Source: a phage. From it: a stretch of DNA of 64,000 nt. This document shows positions 3,048 to 61,368 of the stretch, one piece after another. A model generated the notes under the pieces. It saw only the letters and a list, made by a program, of their open reading frames with translations. It had not been told where the DNA came from and searched no databases. Positions within the stretch are counted from its first letter, which is position 1. Each line of letters starts with the position of its first letter. Location of the stretch: the sequence record PZ452610.1, one strand, 5' to 3'. The position numbers were made by a program, and so were the translations under genes.

Positions 3048-3104
3048 AATATTCTCCTCTTGTTTTGATAGGTCTATAGTATCATAGACCATAGTTGTTG
3101 TACA

Positions 3105-3629
3105 TCATTTTAGCAAAATAAAATCAACTTGTTCTGCCAATGAACGTCTAAACATTAATTGACAACTTCCGAGTATGAAATCAGGTGCTTCATAGACCGC
3201 GATGTAGTATCCTTTAGCTTTCAAGAGTTCAACATCCACTTGGTCATCAAACCATGCATAAACCGCGTCAACACTTTCAAATCCAAAATAGAACCCTTGA
3301 GCCCAATCTTCACTCAATTCAAATGTGTACTCAATTCTATGGTATCTTAAGATATTTTGTTCAAGGAGTTTGTCTTCATTTACTGTAGGACGATTAGGGA
3401 CATTATAGTTGTCGCCGTGATGGTAGAAGTTACCTGAGAGTATTCCATGCTTATCAAGGAATTCCCATGTTTCTTCAGAGTTGTCGGTGCCTGACCAACC
3501 GTACGGCGAGCGAGGTTCTTTATTCCAAGAGGTTTCCCAAATTCTGACGGCTTTACCGTCTTCGATAGCAATTCCTGGTAATGATTCACGTTGAGTACAA
3601 AAACTACGTTCTACGCGGTAAACTAACAT
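3105..3629 (-). CDS. Hypothetical protein, 174 aa
   Basis: ATG 3629 with SD GAGGAG; early promoter immediately upstream. Confidence 0.6.
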   Translation of the reverse strand: MLVYRVERSFCTQRESLPGIAIEDGKAVRIWETSWNKEPRSPYGWSGTDNSEETWEFLDKHGILSGNFYHHGDNYNVPNRPTVNEDKLLEQNILRYHRIEYTFELSEDWAQGFYFGFESVDAVYAWFDDQVDVELLKAKGYYIAVYEAPDFILGSCQLMFRRSLAEQVDFILLK

Positions 3630-5193: not shown

Positions 5194-5871
5194 TTATCGC
5201 TGTTTTACACTTAACGGGTCAGGATTCTCAGGGACATCTTCAAGGCCAAGCGCATAACGCTGAGCATATTTTAACATCAAAATATCTTTAGCACAATCAT
5301 GAATACTATCATGGGCAACGAATCCTTTTAGCGTACCCATCGGTAATGGACACATACTTAATCCTCGTGTCAACGAGTAAGCTTCGATTGCTGTACGAAT
5401 ATCACGTTGAGCCCAGAATTTAACCGGTTCTAATTTATCAGTATCAATATCTGGTTCAAGAACACCTTCATCACGATAGAGGTCACGAATCAAATCGACC
5501 AAGATCGGGAAGTCAAAGCTCATACCACGGCACCACATCTGTGATTTCCATTGGTCAACTTTATTAGCTCGACAATAATCTAAAAAGATTTTAATGCCTT
5601 CAAGCGTAGTGACATCGTCTTCAGACGGAGCCAAGTTTTTACGTGCTTCAGCCGATTGTTCTTTCCACCATTTCATAGTGGATTTAGCGAAAACTCGCTT
5701 CCCTTTCTGAGAAGCTAAATTAAATTTAATTCGCTTACCTCGTTGAACAAGTTCTTCAAATGATTCAACAACTTCAGGGTCGGAATTATATGCAATAACC
5801 GCAAGGTCAATAACAGCCGCTTTTGATGTATTGCCGAATGTTTCAAAGTCTATAATAACATCAGTGCTCAT
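5194..5871 (-). CDS. dexA: Exonuclease A (DexA), 3'-5' exonuclease
   Basis: 225 aa, N-terminus MSTDVIIDFETFGN (DEDD exonuclease motif I); immediately downstream of dda as in T4. Confidence 0.85.
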   Translation of the reverse strand: MSTDVIIDFETFGNTSKAAVIDLAVIAYNSDPEVVESFEELVQRGKRIKFNLASQKGKRVFAKSTMKWWKEQSAEARKNLAPSEDDVTTLEGIKIFLDYCRANKVDQWKSQMWCRGMSFDFPILVDLIRDLYRDEGVLEPDIDTDKLEPVKFWAQRDIRTAIEAYSLTRGLSMCPLPMGTLKGFVAHDSIHDCAKDILMLKYAQRYALGLEDVPENPDPLSVKQR

Positions 5872-5880
5872 AATTTTCTC

Positions 5881-7194
5881 TCAAATAAAATGGACGTCAA
5901 AACGACCACGAGTCGTGCCGACATACAATAACTGTTTAGCTAATTCTGAATCGGCATAATGGATACACGGTGTATAAACAAAGGCCGTGTCAACAGACAT
6001 ACCCTGGGCCTTATGGAAGGTTGATACAGGTAGTGCCTTCACCTTAGTGAACATACGTTTAGCATCCCAGAATTCGCTCCATGGAGCTTTACCGCCTTTA
6101 TTCCAGAATTTATATGTTTCTGCGGTCTTAGCCAAAAACAAATTGAATTTATAAAGCTCTTCTTCAGAAGAAATAACCTTTATATCTTCACGGATGTATT
6201 CTTCATCATCACTATATGTTTCTACTGTAAGATTCCAGTATCGTATCATATATTCGCCTGAAACACCGCGTGCTTTAACGAATGTAGACGTTTCTACAGC
6301 ATCTCGAATACGAACGAATTGCCCGTTATTGAAAAGCATTTCGGTCATATTTTTGCCATCTAGCTTATATGTCTTAGTAAATGGCTCTTGTAGAACAATG
6401 ACTTCGTCTTTAATAAATGGCTTTTCTGTTTCGAGAAGTTTTCGGCGAATAATTGAATTTAACTTGTCCACCGACTTATTTGTGAATGCCATCATTCGAT
6501 TTTCGAAAAGGTCTTCAGGAGTTTTAACGACGTTAAAATAGTTCATCATATACGATTTAAGGTCTGTATATCCATGAACACCGTGCCCATCAACTACTTT
6601 ATCGTAAATCCATTTGCCATTACGAATATCAGTCGCAACATCAATAATTGGCGCATTGCTACGTTTAACTTCTGTAAGGTTGCATTGCACGAAGTCTTTG
6701 TGAGTGAAGAAAGGACTTAGATACGCAGTTGATTCGCCTGGGTCTACCGGACGAATCTGGCATCGGTCGCCGATTCCAATTACTGTGCACCATTTAGGGA
6801 TACTAGCTAACATTATTTTAAACAGAGGACGGTCGCACATTGACGCTTCATCAAATAACAGTACACGACACAAGGCTAAGTCGGGAACCTTTTTCTGTTC
6901 AAACAATACGTTTTCTTCGTATGTAGTTGGGTTGATTTTAAGAATGCTATGAATAGTCGATGCTTCTTGACCCGCAAGTTTGCTTAGAACCTTTTTAGCA
7001 GCATGTGTAGGGGCTGCTAAAATAATACCTGATTCTCCGGCAGAAATAAGAGCTTCAACGATGAATCTAGTAAGGGTTGTTTTACCTGTACCAGCAGGCC
7101 CATTAATAGTTACGTGATGTTTCTTTTCTTTAATAGCGTTCATAACAACGTTGAAGGCGTTTTTCTGGCCTTCAGTCAAATCATCAAATGTCAT
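5881..7194 (-). CDS. dda: Dda DNA helicase (SF1B)
   Basis: 437 aa; N-terminus MTFDDLTEGQKNAFNVVMNAIKEKKHHVTINGPAGTGKTT closely matches T4 Dda as I recall it; Walker A present. Confidence 0.95.
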   Translation of the reverse strand: MTFDDLTEGQKNAFNVVMNAIKEKKHHVTINGPAGTGKTTLTRFIVEALISAGESGIILAAPTHAAKKVLSKLAGQEASTIHSILKINPTTYEENVLFEQKKVPDLALCRVLLFDEASMCDRPLFKIMLASIPKWCTVIGIGDRCQIRPVDPGESTAYLSPFFTHKDFVQCNLTEVKRSNAPIIDVATDIRNGKWIYDKVVDGHGVHGYTDLKSYMMNYFNVVKTPEDLFENRMMAFTNKSVDKLNSIIRRKLLETEKPFIKDEVIVLQEPFTKTYKLDGKNMTEMLFNNGQFVRIRDAVETSTFVKARGVSGEYMIRYWNLTVETYSDDEEYIREDIKVISSEEELYKFNLFLAKTAETYKFWNKGGKAPWSEFWDAKRMFTKVKALPVSTFHKAQGMSVDTAFVYTPCIHYADSELAKQLLYVGTTRGRFDVHFI

Positions 7195-22457: not shown

Positions 22458-22697
22458 TTATTTGAATTTCTTGACAATGTTGATATAACGTAAAGCTTCA
22501 GCATCGATACTTCCAAGAACACTATGAAGAAATGCATCAGCGTAGTATTCCAATTGAACAGGTTCTTTAATCACTTTAGCCGCTTTAGTTTCAAACAGGC
22601 CCATCAGGGCCTTTTTAAGAATTTGTTCGTTGCTGTTAATTTTCATAGTCAAAATCTCTTCATTAAGTTGGTGGTTAAAAGTTTTTCTAGAAATCAT
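22458..22697 (-). CDS. Hypothetical protein, 79 aa
   Basis: ORF in operon context. Confidence 0.45.
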   Translation of the reverse strand: MISRKTFNHQLNEEILTMKINSNEQILKKALMGLFETKAAKVIKEPVQLEYYADAFLHSVLGSIDAEALRYINIVKKFK

Positions 22698-23869
22698 TCC
22701 GGGTACCTCAAAGCGTCATCAGAGTTAGTTATATCAATAATAGATATAGAGTTTTCTGCTAACCCGTTTTTAGATAATTGACGTTTATAATATCTTTCAC
22801 AATATGTACACGTCGTCCCGCAGATTTCATTAGCACAATCGAAATCTGGATGTCTGAACCACCTTTTTTCTAAAAAGCCATCTAACAAAGAGGTTTCAAT
22901 ATTTACTGTATGTGAAAACTCAGTTTCGTTTTCAAGAGTGAAAATAGTCTCTAAAGGCTTCCACAGTTCTAACAAATTACCTTCAAACTTTTCAGAAGCG
23001 TATGCTTCAAGAACTTTCAAAATGTAGTCTGTGCTACCTGTACGTCCTGAAACTTTGAATTGAGTGATACCAATATCATTATAAAGTTTCAAATCTTGAG
23101 GACGAACAAAACGAGTTCTCAACCAGTTAAATGGGTCTGTATCACGAGCTTTAATACAGTGCTGCATAGGATATCCGTTTAAGGATTTAGCATCATCAGC
23201 TGTAACATCAGTACTATGGAAAATATAGCAAGAGTCACGATAGCTACAATGTGTTGTATACCCTTTACCAGCATTAGAACAGAACTCATTTACAAGAACT
23301 TCAAATATTATATTGTTCTTATTGCAAAACTCTGCTGCACGCTTCAGGAAAGAAACTGAACGGTTCTTATGAATTCCACAGCAGACCTTTTTGATATTAT
23401 ACTGGTCATGCAAGTATTTGATTTGAGTTACAGCATCGACATGTAGAATTGTTGAAACTTCAATCTCAATGTCTTTATTGACTTCACGAACAATTTCCAT
23501 AACAACAGGGTTAGCGATAGTAATACGCCATACGCCTATTGACCAAAGATACTGAACATAATCCTGAATAGCTTTCTTCTTCCACCCAACTAGTTCTCTT
23601 TTTGAACCAGGATTTATCGTGTTGAGTGTATAGTTAAAGCAAATACCTAATTCGTTACAACGTTTAACGTAATCTTCTAACATCTTTTTGTCAACGTCAG
23701 GAAGCCTAAAATCAGGTCTGGCTGCTACAAAAGCCATTTCTCTTGTAGAGCCGTATACTTCGTTTATCAAGCTATTAGGATAAGTTTTATTGAGCTCTAC
23801 GATTTTATCAAGAAGAGCTAAATCAAAATTCGTTCCAATTTTAAAAGTATTCATTTTTTTGCATCTCAC
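22694..23869 (-). CDS. Hypothetical protein, 391 aa, with C-terminal Cys cluster
   Basis: C-terminal CANEICGTTCTYC (C-x4-C-x3-C-x2-C); family not recognised; sits inside the sugar-nucleotide cassette. Confidence 0.6.
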   Translation of the reverse strand: MRCKKMNTFKIGTNFDLALLDKIVELNKTYPNSLINEVYGSTREMAFVAARPDFRLPDVDKKMLEDYVKRCNELGICFNYTLNTINPGSKRELVGWKKKAIQDYVQYLWSIGVWRITIANPVVMEIVREVNKDIEIEVSTILHVDAVTQIKYLHDQYNIKKVCCGIHKNRSVSFLKRAAEFCNKNNIIFEVLVNEFCSNAGKGYTTHCSYRDSCYIFHSTDVTADDAKSLNGYPMQHCIKARDTDPFNWLRTRFVRPQDLKLYNDIGITQFKVSGRTGSTDYILKVLEAYASEKFEGNLLELWKPLETIFTLENETEFSHTVNIETSLLDGFLEKRWFRHPDFDCANEICGTTCTYCERYYKRQLSKNGLAENSISIIDITNSDDALRYPE

Positions 23870-23910
23870 GTTAATTGATGCGATGGTTTTTGCAGGTCTT
23901 ACTTAAATTA

Positions 23911-41172: not shown

Positions 41173-41643
41173 TTAATCATGTTTCCACACCCCATTGGTA
41201 TTCGACCAAAGTCGCTGATTATCTGATCCTCGCCACAGTTTTTTGGTCGGAAGATTTTTCTCATACTTCCCATCAATAATAACATCAACATATTTAAGCA
41301 TTTCTAGTTGTTTAATATCTTCAAACTTATATCCTGTCCACAACCAAATGCTTTTATTGGGATAAATATTTTTTACTGTTTGAACAATGCAATGAACAAC
41401 ATCTCTATTATCAGGATAGAGAGGGTCGCCTCCGGTTATAGTCAATCCTTCTATATAATCATTATTCAAACATTCAATTAATTGTTCTAGTGTCTCTCCA
41501 GTGAATGGAGCACCATTTCTAGCGTTCCATGTTGATTTATTATAACACCCTTCACATTTATGCAAACAACCTGTAACGAAAAGAACGACCCTGCAACCAG
41601 GGCCATTCACAAAATCGCAAGGATAAAATCTATCATAATTCAT
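41173..41643 (-). CDS. nrdG: Anaerobic ribonucleotide reductase activating protein NrdG (radical SAM)
   Basis: 156 aa; Cys cluster CLHKCEGCYN; immediately downstream of nrdD. Confidence 0.9.
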   Translation of the reverse strand: MNYDRFYPCDFVNGPGCRVVLFVTGCLHKCEGCYNKSTWNARNGAPFTGETLEQLIECLNNDYIEGLTITGGDPLYPDNRDVVHCIVQTVKNIYPNKSIWLWTGYKFEDIKQLEMLKYVDVIIDGKYEKNLPTKKLWRGSDNQRLWSNTNGVWKHD

Positions 41644-43457
41644 TGGTGTTTAACCCTATGCATGATTTCTTTATTTTTACCGAGATTAAATCCGCGTTCG
41701 TTCGGATTTCCCAAATAACCGCATGTTCTTCTTATGGTGTTCATCTTTTTAGGATCAGTTTCTCCGCAAACTGAACAAACAAATCCGTTTTCAGTAGGAG
41801 TCATTTCATGGGTACTTCCACATGTAAAACATTTATCTACTGGCATATTAACACCAAAATAATCTAAATGTTGTGCAGCATAATCCCAGACAGCCTCAAG
41901 TCCCTTTAAATTGTTTTTCATATCTGGAAGTTCAACATAAGAAATGTGACCACCTGTCGCAATGAAATGATATGGCGCTTCACGAGAAATCTTTTCAAAC
42001 GGAGTAATATTTTCTTCTACTGAAACATGGAAACTATTAGTGTACCAGCCTTTATCTGTAACATCTTTTACACTTCCATATTTTTCTGTGTCTAGTTTAC
42101 AGAAACGATAACAAAGGTTTTCAGCAGGTGTAGAATACAAGCTAAAAGCAAACCCAGTTCTTTCAGTCCATTGTTTAAGAAGAGCATTCATTTTAGTTAA
42201 AATTTCTTGTCCAATATCACGTCCGACAAGAATATTCAATTCGTGGATACCAATGTATCCTAAAGACACTGAACTTCTACCGTTTTTAAATAACTCAATT
42301 ATGTCGTCATCAGGTTTAAGACGAACCCCGAATGCACCTTCTTGGTAAAGAATAGGAGCAACAGTCGCTTTAACTCCTTTTAAGGAACTAATTCTACACA
42401 TCAAGGCTTCAAAACACAGATCCATACGTTCATTGAATAATTCAACAAATTTCTGTTCATTGAACTGTGTTCCAATATAAGAATCTAATGCGATACGAGG
42501 AAGATTCAGTGTTACAACACCGAGATTATTACGTCCATCAAGAATTTCATTACCAGTCGAATCTTTCCATACGCTCAAGAAACTACGGCAACCCATTGGA
42601 GAAACTGGAACTGAAGAACCAGTAATAGCTTTATTATTCTTAGCTGAAATAATATCAGGATACATTCTTTTGCTTGCGCACTCTAGAGCAAGCTGCTTAA
42701 TATCATAGTTCGGATCGTCTTTATAAAGATTAACACCTTCTTCAACGAACATAACAAGCTTAGGGAAAATAGGAGTTATTCCATCACGACCAAGACCTTT
42801 AATGCGGTTTTTAAGAATTGCCTTCTGAATCATTCGTTCAGTCCAATCGGCCCCCGTACCAAATGTAATTGTTACAAAAGGTGTTTGTCCGTTTGAACTA
42901 AAGAGAGTATTTACTTCATATTCATAAGCTTGGAACGCGTCATAGACATCTTTTTCTGTTTTGGATTGAGCATAATTCAACGCATCAGCGATTTGCCATT
43001 TTTCCGCATCTTCAACATGTTTAGCGTATGTGCGTTTAACATAAGGAGAAAGAACTTTATCGACATTTGCAAATGTAGTTCCGCCATACTGATGTGAAGC
43101 AACTTGTGCAGTAATTTGTGCCATAATTGCAGTAGCAACACCAATCGATTTAGGCGTTTCAATTTGAGCATTGCCTAATTTAAATCCGTTCTCAAGCATC
43201 CCCTTTAAATCGACTAAACAACAATTAGTAAACGGAAGAGCAGGAGAATAATCAATATCATGCATGTGGATAATTCCACTTTCATGCGCATTCATAATAA
43301 AAGACGGGACCATATTTTTGGCAATGTGCTTAGACACAATACCAGCCATAAGGTCCCGTTGAGTTGGAAAAACACGAGAATCTTTATTAGCATTCTCGTT
43401 TAAAAGGTCTTTATTAGTTTTATGAATTAATCCTTCAATTTCTTTTTCAATTTTCAT
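41640..43457 (-). CDS. nrdD: Anaerobic ribonucleoside-triphosphate reductase NrdD (glycyl radical enzyme), uninterrupted
   Basis: 605 aa; C-terminal zinc ribbon CFTCGS...CSVCG and glycyl radical motif RRTCGYLGNP; no intron-like interruption. Confidence 0.95.
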   Translation of the reverse strand: MKIEKEIEGLIHKTNKDLLNENANKDSRVFPTQRDLMAGIVSKHIAKNMVPSFIMNAHESGIIHMHDIDYSPALPFTNCCLVDLKGMLENGFKLGNAQIETPKSIGVATAIMAQITAQVASHQYGGTTFANVDKVLSPYVKRTYAKHVEDAEKWQIADALNYAQSKTEKDVYDAFQAYEYEVNTLFSSNGQTPFVTITFGTGADWTERMIQKAILKNRIKGLGRDGITPIFPKLVMFVEEGVNLYKDDPNYDIKQLALECASKRMYPDIISAKNNKAITGSSVPVSPMGCRSFLSVWKDSTGNEILDGRNNLGVVTLNLPRIALDSYIGTQFNEQKFVELFNERMDLCFEALMCRISSLKGVKATVAPILYQEGAFGVRLKPDDDIIELFKNGRSSVSLGYIGIHELNILVGRDIGQEILTKMNALLKQWTERTGFAFSLYSTPAENLCYRFCKLDTEKYGSVKDVTDKGWYTNSFHVSVEENITPFEKISREAPYHFIATGGHISYVELPDMKNNLKGLEAVWDYAAQHLDYFGVNMPVDKCFTCGSTHEMTPTENGFVCSVCGETDPKKMNTIRRTCGYLGNPNERGFNLGKNKEIMHRVKHQ

Positions 43458-56759: not shown

Positions 56760-57069
56760 CTAGACGGTCCACCATAGAATTGCATGCTGCCTTATCTTTA
56801 GGTTCCGCCACCGAGCATTCTAATATTTGCCATTTTTTATAGTATCTTTTAATTAAGGTAGACGCCTTGAACCTACTAGACGCCCCATCTTTTTCTCCGT
56901 CTTTATACGCGTATAACAATTTTTGTGAAAAATCTACTTTACACTCTTGACTTTTACCACAATAATCAGACGCCGTTCTGTTTGTATACTCCGTTACATC
57001 AGTATATGTAGTATTAGCAAGAGCGTTAAATGAAACCAAGCTAACTATTAAAGCCAACATTTTGGTCAT
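56722..57069 (-). CDS. vs: Secreted protein, 115 aa, at the T4 vs position
   Basis: Same length as T4 Vs; N-terminal signal peptide MTKMLALIVSLVSFNALA. Confidence 0.45.
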   Translation of the reverse strand: MTKMLALIVSLVSFNALANTTYTDVTEYTNRTASDYCGKSQECKVDFSQKLLYAYKDGEKDGASSRFKASTLIKRYYKKWQILECSVAEPKDKAACNSMVDRLVDSYTRGLAASD

Positions 57070-57608
57070 TCTTTTATTTCCAGTAGTTTATTTGATTTAA
57101 GGTAATTAGCCTTTTCTAGGACTTCAGAAGCATATTTACTTCCAGCACTTGTCTTCCATCCCGCATTATATGAGGATATGGCTTTTCTTATATCCCCGTT
57201 ATGTATATTTAACCAATAAGAAAATTCGATATAAGCCCATCTGGCTGAATTAGACCGCTTAGATAGCATTTTCTTAATTTGGGCATCAGTCATATTATAA
57301 CCAAGCTGGTTAATTCTTGCCCTCATTGTTGGTAGATAGTTTTGGAACATTCCATACGCATGGTGACCTTTCTTATCTTTAAGATTAATACCGGCAGATG
57401 ATTCTTGCCATAGTATTGCGGCCATTATGTATCCAAGTCCTTTCTTATGCATATTTTCATGCGTTTTAAATTTTCCATCCTTAGAAAACTGTTCCCCAAA
57501 CTGATAAGCATAATTCAAGTTATCGAGTTGGACATTACTAAAAGTATGCTCGGAGCTATGTGCTGATAACGAAAGAGCAAATAGACCAGCGAGTAGTGCT
57601 TTTCTCAT
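57066..57608 (-). CDS. vs.1: Secreted lytic-transglycosylase-like protein (vs.1 position)
   Basis: Signal peptide MRKALLAGLFALSLSA; SLT-like catalytic segment AAILWQESSAG. Confidence 0.6.
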   Translation of the reverse strand: MRKALLAGLFALSLSAHSSEHTFSNVQLDNLNYAYQFGEQFSKDGKFKTHENMHKKGLGYIMAAILWQESSAGINLKDKKGHHAYGMFQNYLPTMRARINQLGYNMTDAQIKKMLSKRSNSARWAYIEFSYWLNIHNGDIRKAISSYNAGWKTSAGSKYASEVLEKANYLKSNKLLEIKE

Positions 57609-57616
57609 GTTTACCT

Positions 57617-58075
57617 CTAGATTTTAATCACTGCTTTAGAAGCTTTTCCTGGTAGTCGTTTACTGTTAATAATAGCCATTCTGCATTGAAGAGTCTTCAT
57701 TTTGAATGCTGGATTTTCGCGACAAACTGTAAGTCCTAACCAAAGATTTCCATCAGTTATTTCTAAACGGCCTGGGCGATATTCGACACCTTCGACAAAA
57801 TCTTCATCAACATCTGGACGGGCTGGCATTGATAAAAATTCTGCAACTTCTTTAACATGATTTTTTACTTTATGAAATAATTCAAAAACGTAATTCTCAT
57901 CTATTTCTCTCTGGATGGCACGATCTAAGAGATGTTGAGAATACTTGATATGAAAGCCTGGTAGTCCAAGAGACTTTGCAGCATCTTTTATACTGGCATT
58001 TATTTTGCGGAACTCCGTTTCAAAGATTCGACGGAGTTTATTGCGGCGGATAAAAACGTCTGAATTGATAGTCAT
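57617..58075 (-). CDS. regB: RegB site-specific endoribonuclease
   Basis: 152 aa; MTINSDVFIRRNKLRRIFETEFRKIN... and C-terminal RLPGKASKAVIKI match T4 RegB. Confidence 0.9.
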   Translation of the reverse strand: MTINSDVFIRRNKLRRIFETEFRKINASIKDAAKSLGLPGFHIKYSQHLLDRAIQREIDENYVFELFHKVKNHVKEVAEFLSMPARPDVDEDFVEGVEYRPGRLEITDGNLWLGLTVCRENPAFKMKTLQCRMAIINSKRLPGKASKAVIKI

Positions 58076-58103
58076 TTTGATTTCTCCTCTAGTTGACAGG
58101 TCT

Positions 58104-58132
58104 ATAGTAACACAACTAGAGGAGAAGTAAAC
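58104..58132 (-). promoter_or_regulatory. Early promoter (GTTTAC - 17 nt - TACTAT) for regB with spacer/SD inverted repeat
   Basis: Spacer TCTCCTCTAGTTG is the exact complement of leader CAACTAGAGGAGA; covaries with the 16701-16729 promoter. Confidence 0.6.
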
Positions 58133-58431
58133 TACTCTTTGAAAGGAATTAACTTTTTAACTGCTTTAGATACTTCGTCACGAACCTGGTGGAAGTTCTT
58201 GAGCTGTTCAAGGCGTTGTTCGTAATACGCAATCTCATCTTCTTCAAGACAATCGTCAGCGTCTTCTTTCAGATATGCCTTGTACTCATTAAAGAGGGCC
58301 CATAGGCGGTTCTCAAAGTCATCAAGGCTTTGAATTTTCTTGTGCTTCGGAACAAGGCCAAAAGGATTGCTTTCAGTTATGCGTCGAGATGCTTCATAAT
58401 GAGTTCCAAAGCCTGATAGGATTTGAGCCAT
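58132..58431 (-). CDS. Hypothetical protein, about 99 aa
   Basis: ATG (MAQILSGF...) overlapping upstream stop; track ORF begins further upstream. Confidence 0.45.
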
Positions 58432-58676
58432 TAGTATTTTTCCTCTGGTTGAAATACCGCACGACAAGCCCACATACTAGCTTCCTTTAGGCGTTCTTTA
58501 GCACAGTTCAATTGGGACAAAGCTGTCAAAGCTTCAGGAGTATTCGCAGACGACGCTTCTTCCGCCAAGGCATCGAAAATAAGCCCTAATCGAACTTCTG
58601 CATCTTTAATAGCGTTCACTTTACCGATTTTATCATCGGTATGCGGCTTGTAGCCTTTGATGTCTTCAATCGACAT
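58431..58676 (-). CDS. Hypothetical protein, about 81 aa
   Basis: ATG 58676 with SD GAGGAA; track ORF extends upstream in overlap. Confidence 0.45.
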
Positions 58677-58890
58677 AAGGAATTTCCTCATCGGTGGCAA
58701 GGTCATATTCGACCAATTGGATAGGCTCATTAATACCATATCCACGTACAGTGATATCGGTTGTCGGATATTTTCCAGTAATATCACCCATTCTAAATGC
58801 TTCAGTGAATGATTGCTCGCCTGAGCAACTAAACCAGGCGGCAAAACATTTTAAAACATCTTCAGACCCTTCTATAATCAATTTAGCCAT
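58666..58890 (-). CDS. Hypothetical protein, 74 aa
   Basis: ORF immediately after the GrcA-like gene. Confidence 0.45.
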   Translation of the reverse strand: MAKLIIEGSEDVLKCFAAWFSCSGEQSFTEAFRMGDITGKYPTTDITVRGYGINEPIQLVEYDLATDEEIPYVD

Positions 58891-59252
58891 TATAGACTCT
58901 CAGTAAAGGTACGAGCGATAACGTCGCGCTGCTGTTCCGGGGTCAGAGAGTTAAAGCGAACTGCATAACCGGATACACGGATGGTCAGCTGTGGATATTT
59001 TTCCGGATGCTTAACTGCATCTTCCAGAGTTTCGCGACGCAGAACGTTAACGTTCAGATGTTGACCACCTTCAATTTTAACTTTAGGTTGATGTTCAATT
59101 TCAATTTCACGGGCATTCAAACCGTAGAAAATTTCCGGGTCTACAATAGCGTCTTCTTTAAAAGTCTTAGAGACGATAATCCGGGCTTGAGTACCGTCTT
59201 CAAAATAAATAGTGCCTTTATGTGCACCTTCAAGAATTTGATATGCTTTCAT
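58890..59252 (-). CDS. GrcA/YfiD-like autonomous glycyl radical cofactor
   Basis: 120 aa; C-terminal [25 protein letters not shown] is the glycyl-radical signature; SD GAGGT. Confidence 0.75.
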
Positions 59253-59258
59253 ATAACC

Positions 59259-59567
59259 TCAATTAGAAAATAAATTTATCCAAGTTTTTTCTTTAATCAA
59301 AAATGGGTCAGAACTAAACGCCATTAAACTTTGAGTGATTAATCCCTTAAATGGCCCATCAATAAATTCCATTTTGAAATGCGGAATACTAGTCATCAAC
59401 CGTGCGTTAGGAGCAGTACAAAGAACCTGCTGCCCTGCGAACGGACCTTTAGTCAAACGGTATCGTTTAGGTTTAAAATGGTAAATCTCGTAATTTTCTA
59501 CAAGAGCCCTTTTATTGCATACTGGGCTGTTATAACAATATTCAAAAACTTCAATAGTGGTCATCAT
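59259..59567 (-). CDS. Hypothetical protein, 102 aa
   Basis: ORF. Confidence 0.45.
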   Translation of the reverse strand: MMTTIEVFEYCYNSPVCNKRALVENYEIYHFKPKRYRLTKGPFAGQQVLCTAPNARLMTSIPHFKMEFIDGPFKGLITQSLMAFSSDPFLIKEKTWINLFSN

Positions 59568-60103
59568 TGCATTCCAATCACAAAAAATTGAGGACGAGCA
59601 TTACCGCCGATGCAATATTTGCTTTTGCAGCAGTACTGTACTGTTTTAATATGGACATTGTAAATCTTATCCATATCAGGAGCTTTAATAGGCTCGTCAA
59701 TTATATACAGAATACGAGAAAGCGTTAATCCACGGAATTTAGAACCTTCATTGCCAATAAAACTACGAACAGAATCAGTAAATAAACGGAATCGAATATC
59801 ATCGCTAGAATAACGAGAAAATTCTTTTTCAATGTTACCAGCAGAAATTTTAGCATAAGCTGAAGTATTAGAAAGAACAATAACTGTTCCGCCATCATAC
59901 AGCCAATTAGCAGCAAAGTTAGTCACAGCAATTGATTTACCGGATTGTCTGCCACCGTCTAAACGAAGTGTACAGTACTGCTTGAGTACGTCTTCAAACG
60001 GTGGGATATAACCGTTCTTACAAATTTCTTCTACTCTAGCATCAGAATGGTGTGTAAAAGCATTCATCAGGGATAGATAAGGTCCAGTTAAAAATGTTCT
60101 CAT
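59564..60103 (-). CDS. Hypothetical protein, 179 aa, possible P-loop
   Basis: GGRQSGKS Walker-A-like and ILYIIDEP Walker-B-like segments. Confidence 0.5.
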   Translation of the reverse strand: MRTFLTGPYLSLMNAFTHHSDARVEEICKNGYIPPFEDVLKQYCTLRLDGGRQSGKSIAVTNFAANWLYDGGTVIVLSNTSAYAKISAGNIEKEFSRYSSDDIRFRLFTDSVRSFIGNEGSKFRGLTLSRILYIIDEPIKAPDMDKIYNVHIKTVQYCCKSKYCIGGNARPQFFVIGMQ

Positions 60104-60276
60104 TTAGTTTCTCTTTTATGTTGGGCCATTCCGTGGCACATGTTAGGTCCTTCGACTCGCTATGTAAACCCATTACCGCACTTGGGCTCGACATTATTAC
60201 AGGTTGGAAAAGGTACATCACTCAGAGGACTCGACGTTCATGAGGAGAGGTTGCGTTTCCCTTTATTAGGCAAGAA

Positions 60277-60606
60277 TTATACTCTAGGCTTTTGAGCTTG
60301 TTTGGTATTGGATTCCCATGCGGCTTTGGTAATTTTGTTAGTGGCATAACCAAAGGCATTAGATAGAACACCTTTAGAGTTGAATACATCCAATCCAATA
60401 AGTACACCGGCTGTGTTAAATTTAGGAGCAAAGTACGCATTAGTTTTAGAAAGAGCTTTTTTCAATTCAGGGTCTTGAACCAAACCATCAAAAACGCCTT
60501 TACTATTTACTTTATATGTTACTTTGGGATTTTTACCTTCTTCGATAGCAGCTTTCTGTTCCGCAGATAATGTAACTTCAGTGATAAACTCCTGATATGT
60601 TTTCAT
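60277..60606 (-). CDS. Internal-protein-like head protein with capsid targeting sequence
   Basis: 109 aa; N-terminus MKTYQEFITE matches the T4 IPII/IPIII capsid-targeting leader; adjacent to denV. Confidence 0.65.
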   Translation of the reverse strand: MKTYQEFITEVTLSAEQKAAIEEGKNPKVTYKVNSKGVFDGLVQDPELKKALSKTNAYFAPKFNTAGVLIGLDVFNSKGVLSNAFGYATNKITKAAWESNTKQAQKPRV

Positions 60607-60614
60607 TTTGTTCC

Positions 60615-61028
60615 TTAGTAAATTGATTTACCATAGTATTTGTACCAAGTCGGACGTTGAGCAATTTTTTCATCTAAGCGTGCTTGACTTATCGCAATGG
60701 ACGCTTCGGACGGGACGTAATTATTACGAAATTCTACAGGAATGTCGGAAATATCCTGGACTGTCGTGTCCTTGATTTTGAAACCACGTTTCAAGCATTC
60801 GGCGATTAGCTCGATTTGACGTAAACGTAAAAATTCGAGTTTGTCGTAAAAGAATGTTACGTGACCTGTGCCTAAGATAAATGTTGGAGAGATTTTAAAA
60901 TCCTTTACACGTTTACCGTTTTGAACATGTTTACGGACTGCACCAAATACGCGTGGTAATTCACGATACTCAGCCATAAGATGTTGGTCGGACAGTTCAG
61001 AAACAAGTGTTAAATTGATACGAGTCAT
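60615..61028 (-). CDS. denV: Endonuclease V (DenV), pyrimidine-dimer DNA glycosylase
   Basis: [35 protein letters not shown]... matches T4 DenV; ATG 61028 with SD GGAGGAAA. Confidence 0.95.
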
Positions 61029-61086
61029 AATTTCCTCCAAGTAGTTGATGAATGTATAGTATCAAAACTCTTGGAGGAAGTAAACA

Positions 61087-61368
61087 CTATTTTTCTGAAG
61101 CGCCTGAAATATATTTTTCAAGACGTTGTTTCATCAGCGAGCCGTTCTTAGCGATTTCTTCCGGTTTATCGCACATACGCAACAAGGCTTCAAGCTTAAC
61201 GATATCACTGGTGCGCTCAAATTTGCGAGTATCTATCTTACTGGCAAGTTCAGAAATACGTGCTAATAGACTTTCAGCTTCAACCAAAGCTGCACCTAGC
61301 TTAGTTGCAAATGTGTCAGTAGCTTCGTTAAGAATAGATTCTGATAAAAATTCACTATATGTTTTCAT
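61087..61368 (-). CDS. Internal-protein-like protein, about 93 aa, with capsid targeting sequence
   Basis: ATG 61368 gives [10 protein letters not shown]...; overlaps lysozyme stop (ATGA). Confidence 0.55.

Follow-up and report, generated by a model that had tools for sequence, protein, structure and literature searches.

The locus and its gene cluster

The gene described here lies at positions 58890..59252 on the minus strand of the window, a term that denotes the whole 64-kb stretch of phage DNA that was analysed. The open reading frame announced for these positions by the sequence-only reading appears in the ORF listing just as it had been described: it starts with ATG, is read from the minus strand and codes for 120 amino acids followed by a stop codon. 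The gene is named grcA and is the orthologue of T4 vs.6, whose product is Y06I; the protein is assigned to the phage-type autonomous glycyl-radical cofactors. Two halves can be distinguished in it, both on the minus strand. The head (codons 1-60; 59073..59252) is an N-terminal half of phage type, as judged from identity comparisons, and the tail (codons 61-120; 58893..59072) is the glycyl-radical domain (beta strand, Gly loop and C-terminal helix), which is regarded as a host-derived segment. Within the tail, RVSGY is encoded on the minus strand at 58965-58979, and the GGT codon at 58968..58970 specifies Gly95, the radical site predicted from the sequence and from alignment. The glycyl-radical motif had been said to end the protein; the motif is present, but four further residues (TESL) come after it.

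A GAGG Shine-Dalgarno sequence (59257..59260, minus strand) is located 4 nt 5' of the ATG and overlaps the TGA stop codon of the upstream vs.7 homologue, and at the opposite end the stop codon of grcA and the start of the next gene share TAATG. From these two overlaps it follows that grcA is packed head to tail in a minus-strand cluster; the ORFs that flank it are small phage genes unrelated to it. The order denV, an extra ORF, vs.8, vs.7, grcA, vs.5, vs.4, vs.3, regB, vs.1, vs and tk.4 matches that of T4 apart from the extra ORF. A scan of 56800-61300 for promoters and terminators gave 13 promoter-like sites versus 12.5 expected by chance and, as these sites are at chance level, the transcription unit of grcA is deduced solely from the tight packing of the genes. 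E. coli O157 typing phages 3, 6 and 13 (Straboviridae, Tevenvirinae, Mosigvirus) share the segment 58000-60200 with 100% identity. The identical records (RefSeq NC_041863 and also GenBank) label the gene grcA, "autonomous glycyl radical cofactor", and the orthologue was characterised biochemically in 2001, so that the feature is already known.

The extra ORF (60277-60606, minus strand; 109 aa, without Pfam match) is situated between denV and vs.8 and constitutes an insertion relative to T4, where denV adjoins vs.8. Next to it, upstream of vs.8, a gap of 173 nt (60104-60276) could hold a promoter. Two genes downstream of grcA, the vs.4 homologue (58431-58676, minus strand; 81 aa) matches the Pfam family Acb2_Tad1_hairpin (1e-17; 64.5 bits versus a cutoff of 27), and its RefSeq label is "hypothetical protein". 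This family consists of phage sponges of cyclic-nucleotide immune signals (anti-CBASS Acb2). Besides, in the NC_041863 locus the vs.1, vs.7 and vs.8 homologues (3067-3609, 5260-5568 and 5565-6104, respectively) bear notes reading "Endoribonuclease RegB T4-bacteriophage encoded". The Pfam REGB_T4 match (2e-69) among these neighbours is limited to 57617-58075, the vs.1 homologue being SLT-like and those of vs.7 and vs.8 having no Pfam match, and the RegB notes on the three homologues look like a propagated mis-annotation.

The window also contains the genes of an anaerobic ribonucleotide reductase, NrdD and NrdG, which had been placed at 41173-43457 and which Pfam recovered at exactly those coordinates. 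On the minus strand, nrdG (41173..41643) codes for the radical-SAM activase of the enzyme (Fer4_12, 1.3e-48; Radical_SAM, 7e-7) and nrdD (41640..43457) codes for the class III (glycyl-radical) ribonucleotide reductase itself, with 605 aa (NRDD, 1e-170; Gly_radical, 1.3e-25). The nrdD gene of T4 (sunY) carries a group I intron. In the present phage, nrdD is one continuous ORF and appears to be intron-less at the site of the T4 intron.

A phage-type member of the GrcA family

The GrcA/YfiD-like identity proposed for the 120-aa protein is borne out by profile and structure databases. The match to Pfam Gly_radical has an E-value of 2e-18 (67.3 bits versus a cutoff of 22.2), the top NCBIfam match is GrcA TIGR04365 (5.8e-47), and the PDB matches are 6OWR, which is E. 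coli GrcA (2e-42), and PflB (3e-26); the match of this ORF to the glycyl-radical family is far above chance. Residues 61-120 are identical to residues 68-127 of E. coli GrcA at 60/60 positions, and correspond to residues 700-759 of PflB. In the alignment with E. coli GrcA, which had been set beforehand as a refutation test, the conserved glycine is kept (G95 is equivalent to GrcA G102 and PflB G734). The alignment with PflB covers residues 696-759 of the enzyme (3e-26), with a tail identity of 48/60 (80%). At the 12 tail positions where E. coli GrcA and PflB differ from each other the phage protein has the GrcA residue in 12/12 cases, and the donor of the tail was therefore grcA, not pflB.

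The protein stands alone, with 120 aa, its own ribosome-binding site and stop codon, and no fusion to the barrel of a glycyl-radical enzyme, and its radical domain is homologous to PFL ~693-759 and contains the RVSGY loop as well as the radical glycine. On the other hand, it scores 159.1 bits against TIGR04365 (residues 18-120 aligned), short of the curated equivalog cutoff of 170 bits, which was tuned on bacterial GrcA and is a classification threshold, not a mechanistic feature. This shortfall is due to the diverged N-terminal half (27% aa identity to the bacterial half), and the protein is filed as a phage (Y06I) subtype of the GrcA family and not as a bacterial GrcA equivalog. Membership of the T4 Vs.6/Y06I group (PHROG 1209) is given by similarity over the full length, head included (phrog_1209, 9e-63; residues 1-120 of 121 profile positions), and by position in the tk-vs-regB-denV early block. 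The label of PHROG 1209 is still "unknown function", and other phage records name the gene variously as "hypothetical protein", "pyruvate formate-lyase", "2-ketobutyrate formate-lyase", "putative formate acetyltransferase" or "autonomous glycyl radical cofactor".

The closest characterised relative is T4 Vs.6 (Y06I; NP_049730, NC_000866 63557-63919), likewise of 120 aa and with 93% aa identity to the phage protein. Its RefSeq name is also GrcA, and its gene likewise lies between vs.7 and vs.5, with vs.4, vs.3 and regB downstream. Of the eight aa substitutions between the two proteins, seven fall in the head and one in the tail (R73 here, H in T4). T4 is a Tequatrovirus, whereas the present phage is a Mosigvirus and has the additional 109-aa ORF between denV and vs.8.

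E. coli GrcA (YfiD; WP_000627807, PDB 6OWR) is also a stand-alone protein of ~14 kDa whose C-terminal 60 residues are identical to those of the phage protein, including RVSGY and the G102-equivalent. The N-terminal halves of both proteins can be aligned and have the motifs IQI, AR.IV.K, ED and RE in common; however, the phage head is shorter by 7 residues than that of E. coli GrcA, to which its aa identity is only 27%, whereas bacterial GrcA heads are 73-93% identical from E. coli to Haemophilus. The phage gene is part of a tight phage gene cluster, while E. coli grcA is a host gene. A single-sequence AlphaFold2 run on the order of the phage-type head gave a mean pLDDT of 41, a value too low to be informative. 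With respect to PflB, the likeness is confined to the C-terminal glycyl-radical domain (696-759; PDB 1H16/2PFL), which shows the 48/60 tail identity and an identical Gly loop, and which is thought to be the piece that the phage protein replaces. Unlike PflB, the phage protein has neither the catalytic barrel nor Cys418/Cys419.

The phage collection searched contains homologues in 1,589 records. Most of their carriers are T4-like phages of Escherichia, Shigella, Klebsiella, Salmonella and Yersinia, and homologues are also present in T5-like Demerecviridae and in one Erwinia jumbo phage. It has been reported that vs.6 is kept in 6/6 T4-like genomes, with a Gly_radical match, and that it is among the conserved ORFs not identified as essential (Nolan et al. 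2006, PMC1524935).

A host-like 3' half and a phage-type 5' half

The two halves of the gene differ sharply in their relation to host DNA. Against E. coli grcA the tail shows 96.7% identity, with 6/180 nt differing, all of them synonymous (dS 0.15, dN 0). A codon alignment guided by the protein gave 93/180 differing nt in the head (identity 48.3% in nt, 27% in aa), and the difference in nucleotide divergence between head and tail has a Fisher p of 1.7e-27. Third positions behave in the same way, 37/60 differing from E. coli in the head versus 6/60 in the tail (p=3e-9). Base composition changes along with identity: the tail has a GC of 0.494, compared with 0.356 for the head and 0.372 for the window, and GC3 is 0.42 in the tail and 0.25 in the head, the neighbouring genes having 0.25-0.39. 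T4 vs.6 shows the same chimeric DNA, with a tail 4/180 nt away from E. coli grcA.

The affinity of the tail is specifically with Escherichia. The grcA tails of E. coli and of other enteric genera differ at 14-30/180 sites, and at such sites the phage carries the E. coli base in 30/30 cases for Salmonella, 13/14 for Citrobacter and 24/25 for Klebsiella. Convergent codon optimisation or codon choice was considered as the cause of the tail identity and rejected, because at nearly every one of these sites the phage has the E. coli base; the GC3 of 0.25 in the head versus 0.42 in the tail of one and the same gene also goes against it. When the 64-kb window was compared by megablast with 5,426 complete E. 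coli genomes, the sole match was 58882/58885-59074, once per genome, and the host-like similarity of the tail stops at the stop codon. In the opposite search, E. coli grcA matched 633 phage records with 95-99% identity; every sampled record aligned to host nt 200-384, and the breakpoint was identical in the sampled rows of these 633 T-even phage records.

The head has a different distribution. It is 50-88% identical in amino acids to the heads of other Straboviridae genera and of the Erwinia jumbo phage, and the phage-type head is common to phages of Klebsiella, Kosakonia, Citrobacter and Erwinia. As the tails of these phages lie at a distance of 19-56 nt from every host tail, it follows that the head predates the E. 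coli-like tail. As for the direction of transfer, the tail falls inside the diversity of enterobacterial grcA and its composition is host-like, which argues for movement from host to phage. These data are explained most parsimoniously by homologous recombination in which host grcA took the place of the 3' half of an ancient phage-type grcA, once Escherichia had split from Citrobacter and Salmonella. A single host-to-phage replacement of the 3' half is well supported. A wider scenario can be offered only tentatively, and is somewhat doubtful as a whole: Escherichia DNA would have overwritten the 3' half of an ancient phage-type grcA, conversion that tracks the host may recur and keep the tail fitted to PflB/PflA, and the head, evolving separately, may control activation. 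No description of this chimerism was found in the searchable literature; key older papers lie outside that search and priority is not claimed.

Comparison of T4 with the present phage bears on whether the tail was gained once or repeatedly. Synonymous divergence in the tail (pS 0.157) is lower than in the neighbouring genes (0.39-0.78, pooled 0.59; p=1e-8), while the head has a pS of 0.33 and the difference between tail and head is not significant (p=0.12). Independent gains of the E. coli tail by T4 and by the present Mosigvirus are not demonstrated, given that non-significant difference and the common breakpoint. Related to this, the whole of grcA (58890-59252, compared with 6558-6920 of the T4 locus) has a pS of 0.24 versus 0.39-0.78 in eight neighbouring genes, and the head alone, with its pS of 0.33, also departs from the neighbours (p=1e-3). 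The low pS of the whole gene suggests either recent exchange between phages or a constraint at the nucleotide level.

Tails of other phages were also compared with those of their hosts. No Klebsiella-identical tail DNA was found in Klebsiella phages, the best matches being 90-95% identical (15 records), and in two sampled Klebsiella phages the tails are 19-31 nt away from any host tail; as judged from these comparisons, a match of similar recency to Klebsiella grcA is lacking at the DNA level in Klebsiella phages. The tail of Klebsiella phage VAC66 is of Klebsiella/Salmonella type (..TLLDAVEH..), and that of Citrobacter phage Margaery is of E. coli/Citrobacter type (..TLEDAVKH..). These phages are related and have similar heads, each matches its own host at two diagnostic tail positions, and their tail DNA is 27-31 nt away from any host tail. 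The pattern, seen in the two phages sampled, could reflect host tracking at the amino acid level. An origin from pflB was considered for the versions found in T5-like, Erwinia jumbo and Providencia phages and was rejected: the tails are equidistant from grcA and pflB, the Providencia one being nearer to GrcA.

Proposed function and competing explanations

The repair of oxygen-damaged host pyruvate formate-lyase (PFL), which the sequence-only reading had suggested as the role of the protein, coincides with the in vitro function published for T4 Y06I, a syntenic orthologue with 93% identity. Given this orthology and the biochemistry of Y06I, the repair role attributed to the present protein would be the published function of its orthologue. 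E. coli YfiD and T4 Y06I have been described as spare parts: the PFL activase radicalises them, they form a complex with O2-cleaved PFL, and in vitro the enzyme thereby regains its activity (Wagner et al. 2001, BBRC 285:456; cited after PMC8683613). According to PMC8683613, they remain the sole validated spare parts. Residues 61-127 of YfiD share the fold of PFL 693-759. Residues 1-60 are disordered, yet they are important both for binding to cleaved PFL and for installation of the radical. In the bacterial system, the radical of GrcA G102 is handed to PflB C419, the numbering of the radical glycines being that of PMC12338860.

On these grounds, the gene most probably encodes a phage-type autonomous glycyl-radical cofactor, orthologous to T4 Vs.6/Y06I, that re-arms O2-cleaved PflB by means of host PflA; we assign this reading a probability of roughly 85%. 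In the proposed sequence of events, O2 would cleave active host PflB at the radical glycine G734, with loss of the C-terminal radical domain. The C-terminal 60 residues of the phage protein would then dock into the damaged enzyme in place of the lost piece, assisted by the N-terminal half. The host activase PflA, a radical SAM enzyme, would abstract a hydrogen from Gly95, and the radical would pass to PflB Cys419, bringing catalysis back. Cleavage, docking, activation and radical transfer have been observed with T4 Y06I and E. coli YfiD in vitro; for the present protein we infer them from 93% identity to the former and 100% (tail) identity to the latter. Binding or the control of activation could differ from that of YfiD, as the N-terminal half is 27% identical and this half matters in YfiD.

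The source of the activase was approached by a motif scan of the 64-kb window, beyond which the genome has ~105 kb more. Among frames of at least 100 aa, NrdG alone has an N-terminal CxxxCxxC; as the only protein of the window with the radical-SAM motif, it leaves the host as the source of the GrcA activase, as far as the window shows. The same scan gave a 402-aa frame (22697-23902, minus strand) with a CxxxCxxC (CGTTCTYC) near residue 361. A radical-SAM cluster is unlikely there because the motif is at the C-terminus, and a zinc-binding motif is more probable.

The presence of NrdD and NrdG within the same window, together with the fact that NrdD and the grcA protein both match Pfam Gly_radical, raises the idea that the protein acts in phage nucleotide metabolism, for instance as a spare radical domain for O2-cleaved NrdD with NrdG as activase. 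This is very improbable. BLASTP of the grcA protein against the phage NrdD gave no significant similarity (best E=10), which makes a direct role as an NrdD spare part unlikely; the radical loops differ, RRTCGYLG in NrdD versus RVSGYAV in the grcA protein; in its tail the protein matches host GrcA at 100% of the positions and PflB at 80%; and T4 Y06I works with PFL and the PFL activase (PMC8683613). An unlikely, although less remote, alternative makes the protein a metabolic manipulator, which would bind PflB (damaged, or intact but inactive) or titrate PflA and thereby redirect or throttle fermentative flux, the phage head altering control. It draws on the N-terminal half, which is phage-specific, conserved across phage genera and under purifying selection, and which in YfiD governs binding and activation, as well as on the title of Kammel & Sawers 2022, which says that GrcA also acts on inactive full-length PflB. 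However, Y06I reconstituted PFL in vitro just as YfiD did and without inhibition (PMC8683613), and a tail that exactly matches host GrcA is in keeping with a functional spare part.

That the 3' half is nearly host-identical DNA with a host-like GC could also be taken to mean that the gene has no function and is carried along as a piece of host DNA, gained by illegitimate or homologous recombination and yet to be lost. This is strongly disfavoured, and hardly credible. The ORF is intact, with a ribosome-binding site and translational coupling, and its homologues in 1,589 phage records extend across Straboviridae, Demerecviridae and jumbo phages. Selection is visible in both halves, with dN 0 versus dS 0.15 in the tail (compared with E. 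coli grcA) and dN/dS ~0.13 in the phage-type head (T4 compared with the present phage), and the T4 orthologue is biochemically active (PMC8683613). The reading of the protein as a spare part for host PFL is therefore preferred.

As regards the benefit to the phage, in E. coli cells of the microaerobic or anaerobic gut a repaired PFL would, we infer, go on giving acetyl-CoA, ATP and formate during infection. In the literature searched, no paper was found on an effect of the gene on infection or on a vs.6 mutant. Formate connects the protein with the reductase of the phage in a way that does not involve direct contact. The NrdD1 subtype of the class III enzymes reportedly uses formate, and formate made by PFL would serve as reductant for the NrdD/NrdG of the phage, as in formate-dependent class III reductases. 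The anaerobic reductase of E. coli takes its hydrogen from formate (Mulliez et al. 1995; cited in PMC13450708), and T4 NrdD is of the same NrdD1 subtype (PMC4493059). Such an indirect link from grcA through PFL to NrdD is plausible.

The gene is thus the re-discovery of a textbook-level accessory gene of T4. It means that lytic coliphages carry a repair part for a fermentative enzyme of their host, which is consistent with life in a gut where oxygen fluctuates. What goes beyond the literature found is the host-derived 3' half, together with a possible advantage in infection that includes the connection to NrdD through formate, and its interest is modest. Under microaerobic conditions, the gain for the phage may lie in a sustained supply of PFL-derived formate for its own formate-dependent anaerobic ribonucleotide reductase. 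The host-derived 3' half is a modest evolutionary curiosity and not a new kind of system, and it may exemplify how a strictly lytic phage recombines with the host chromosome and keeps a host-interacting protein matched to its target.
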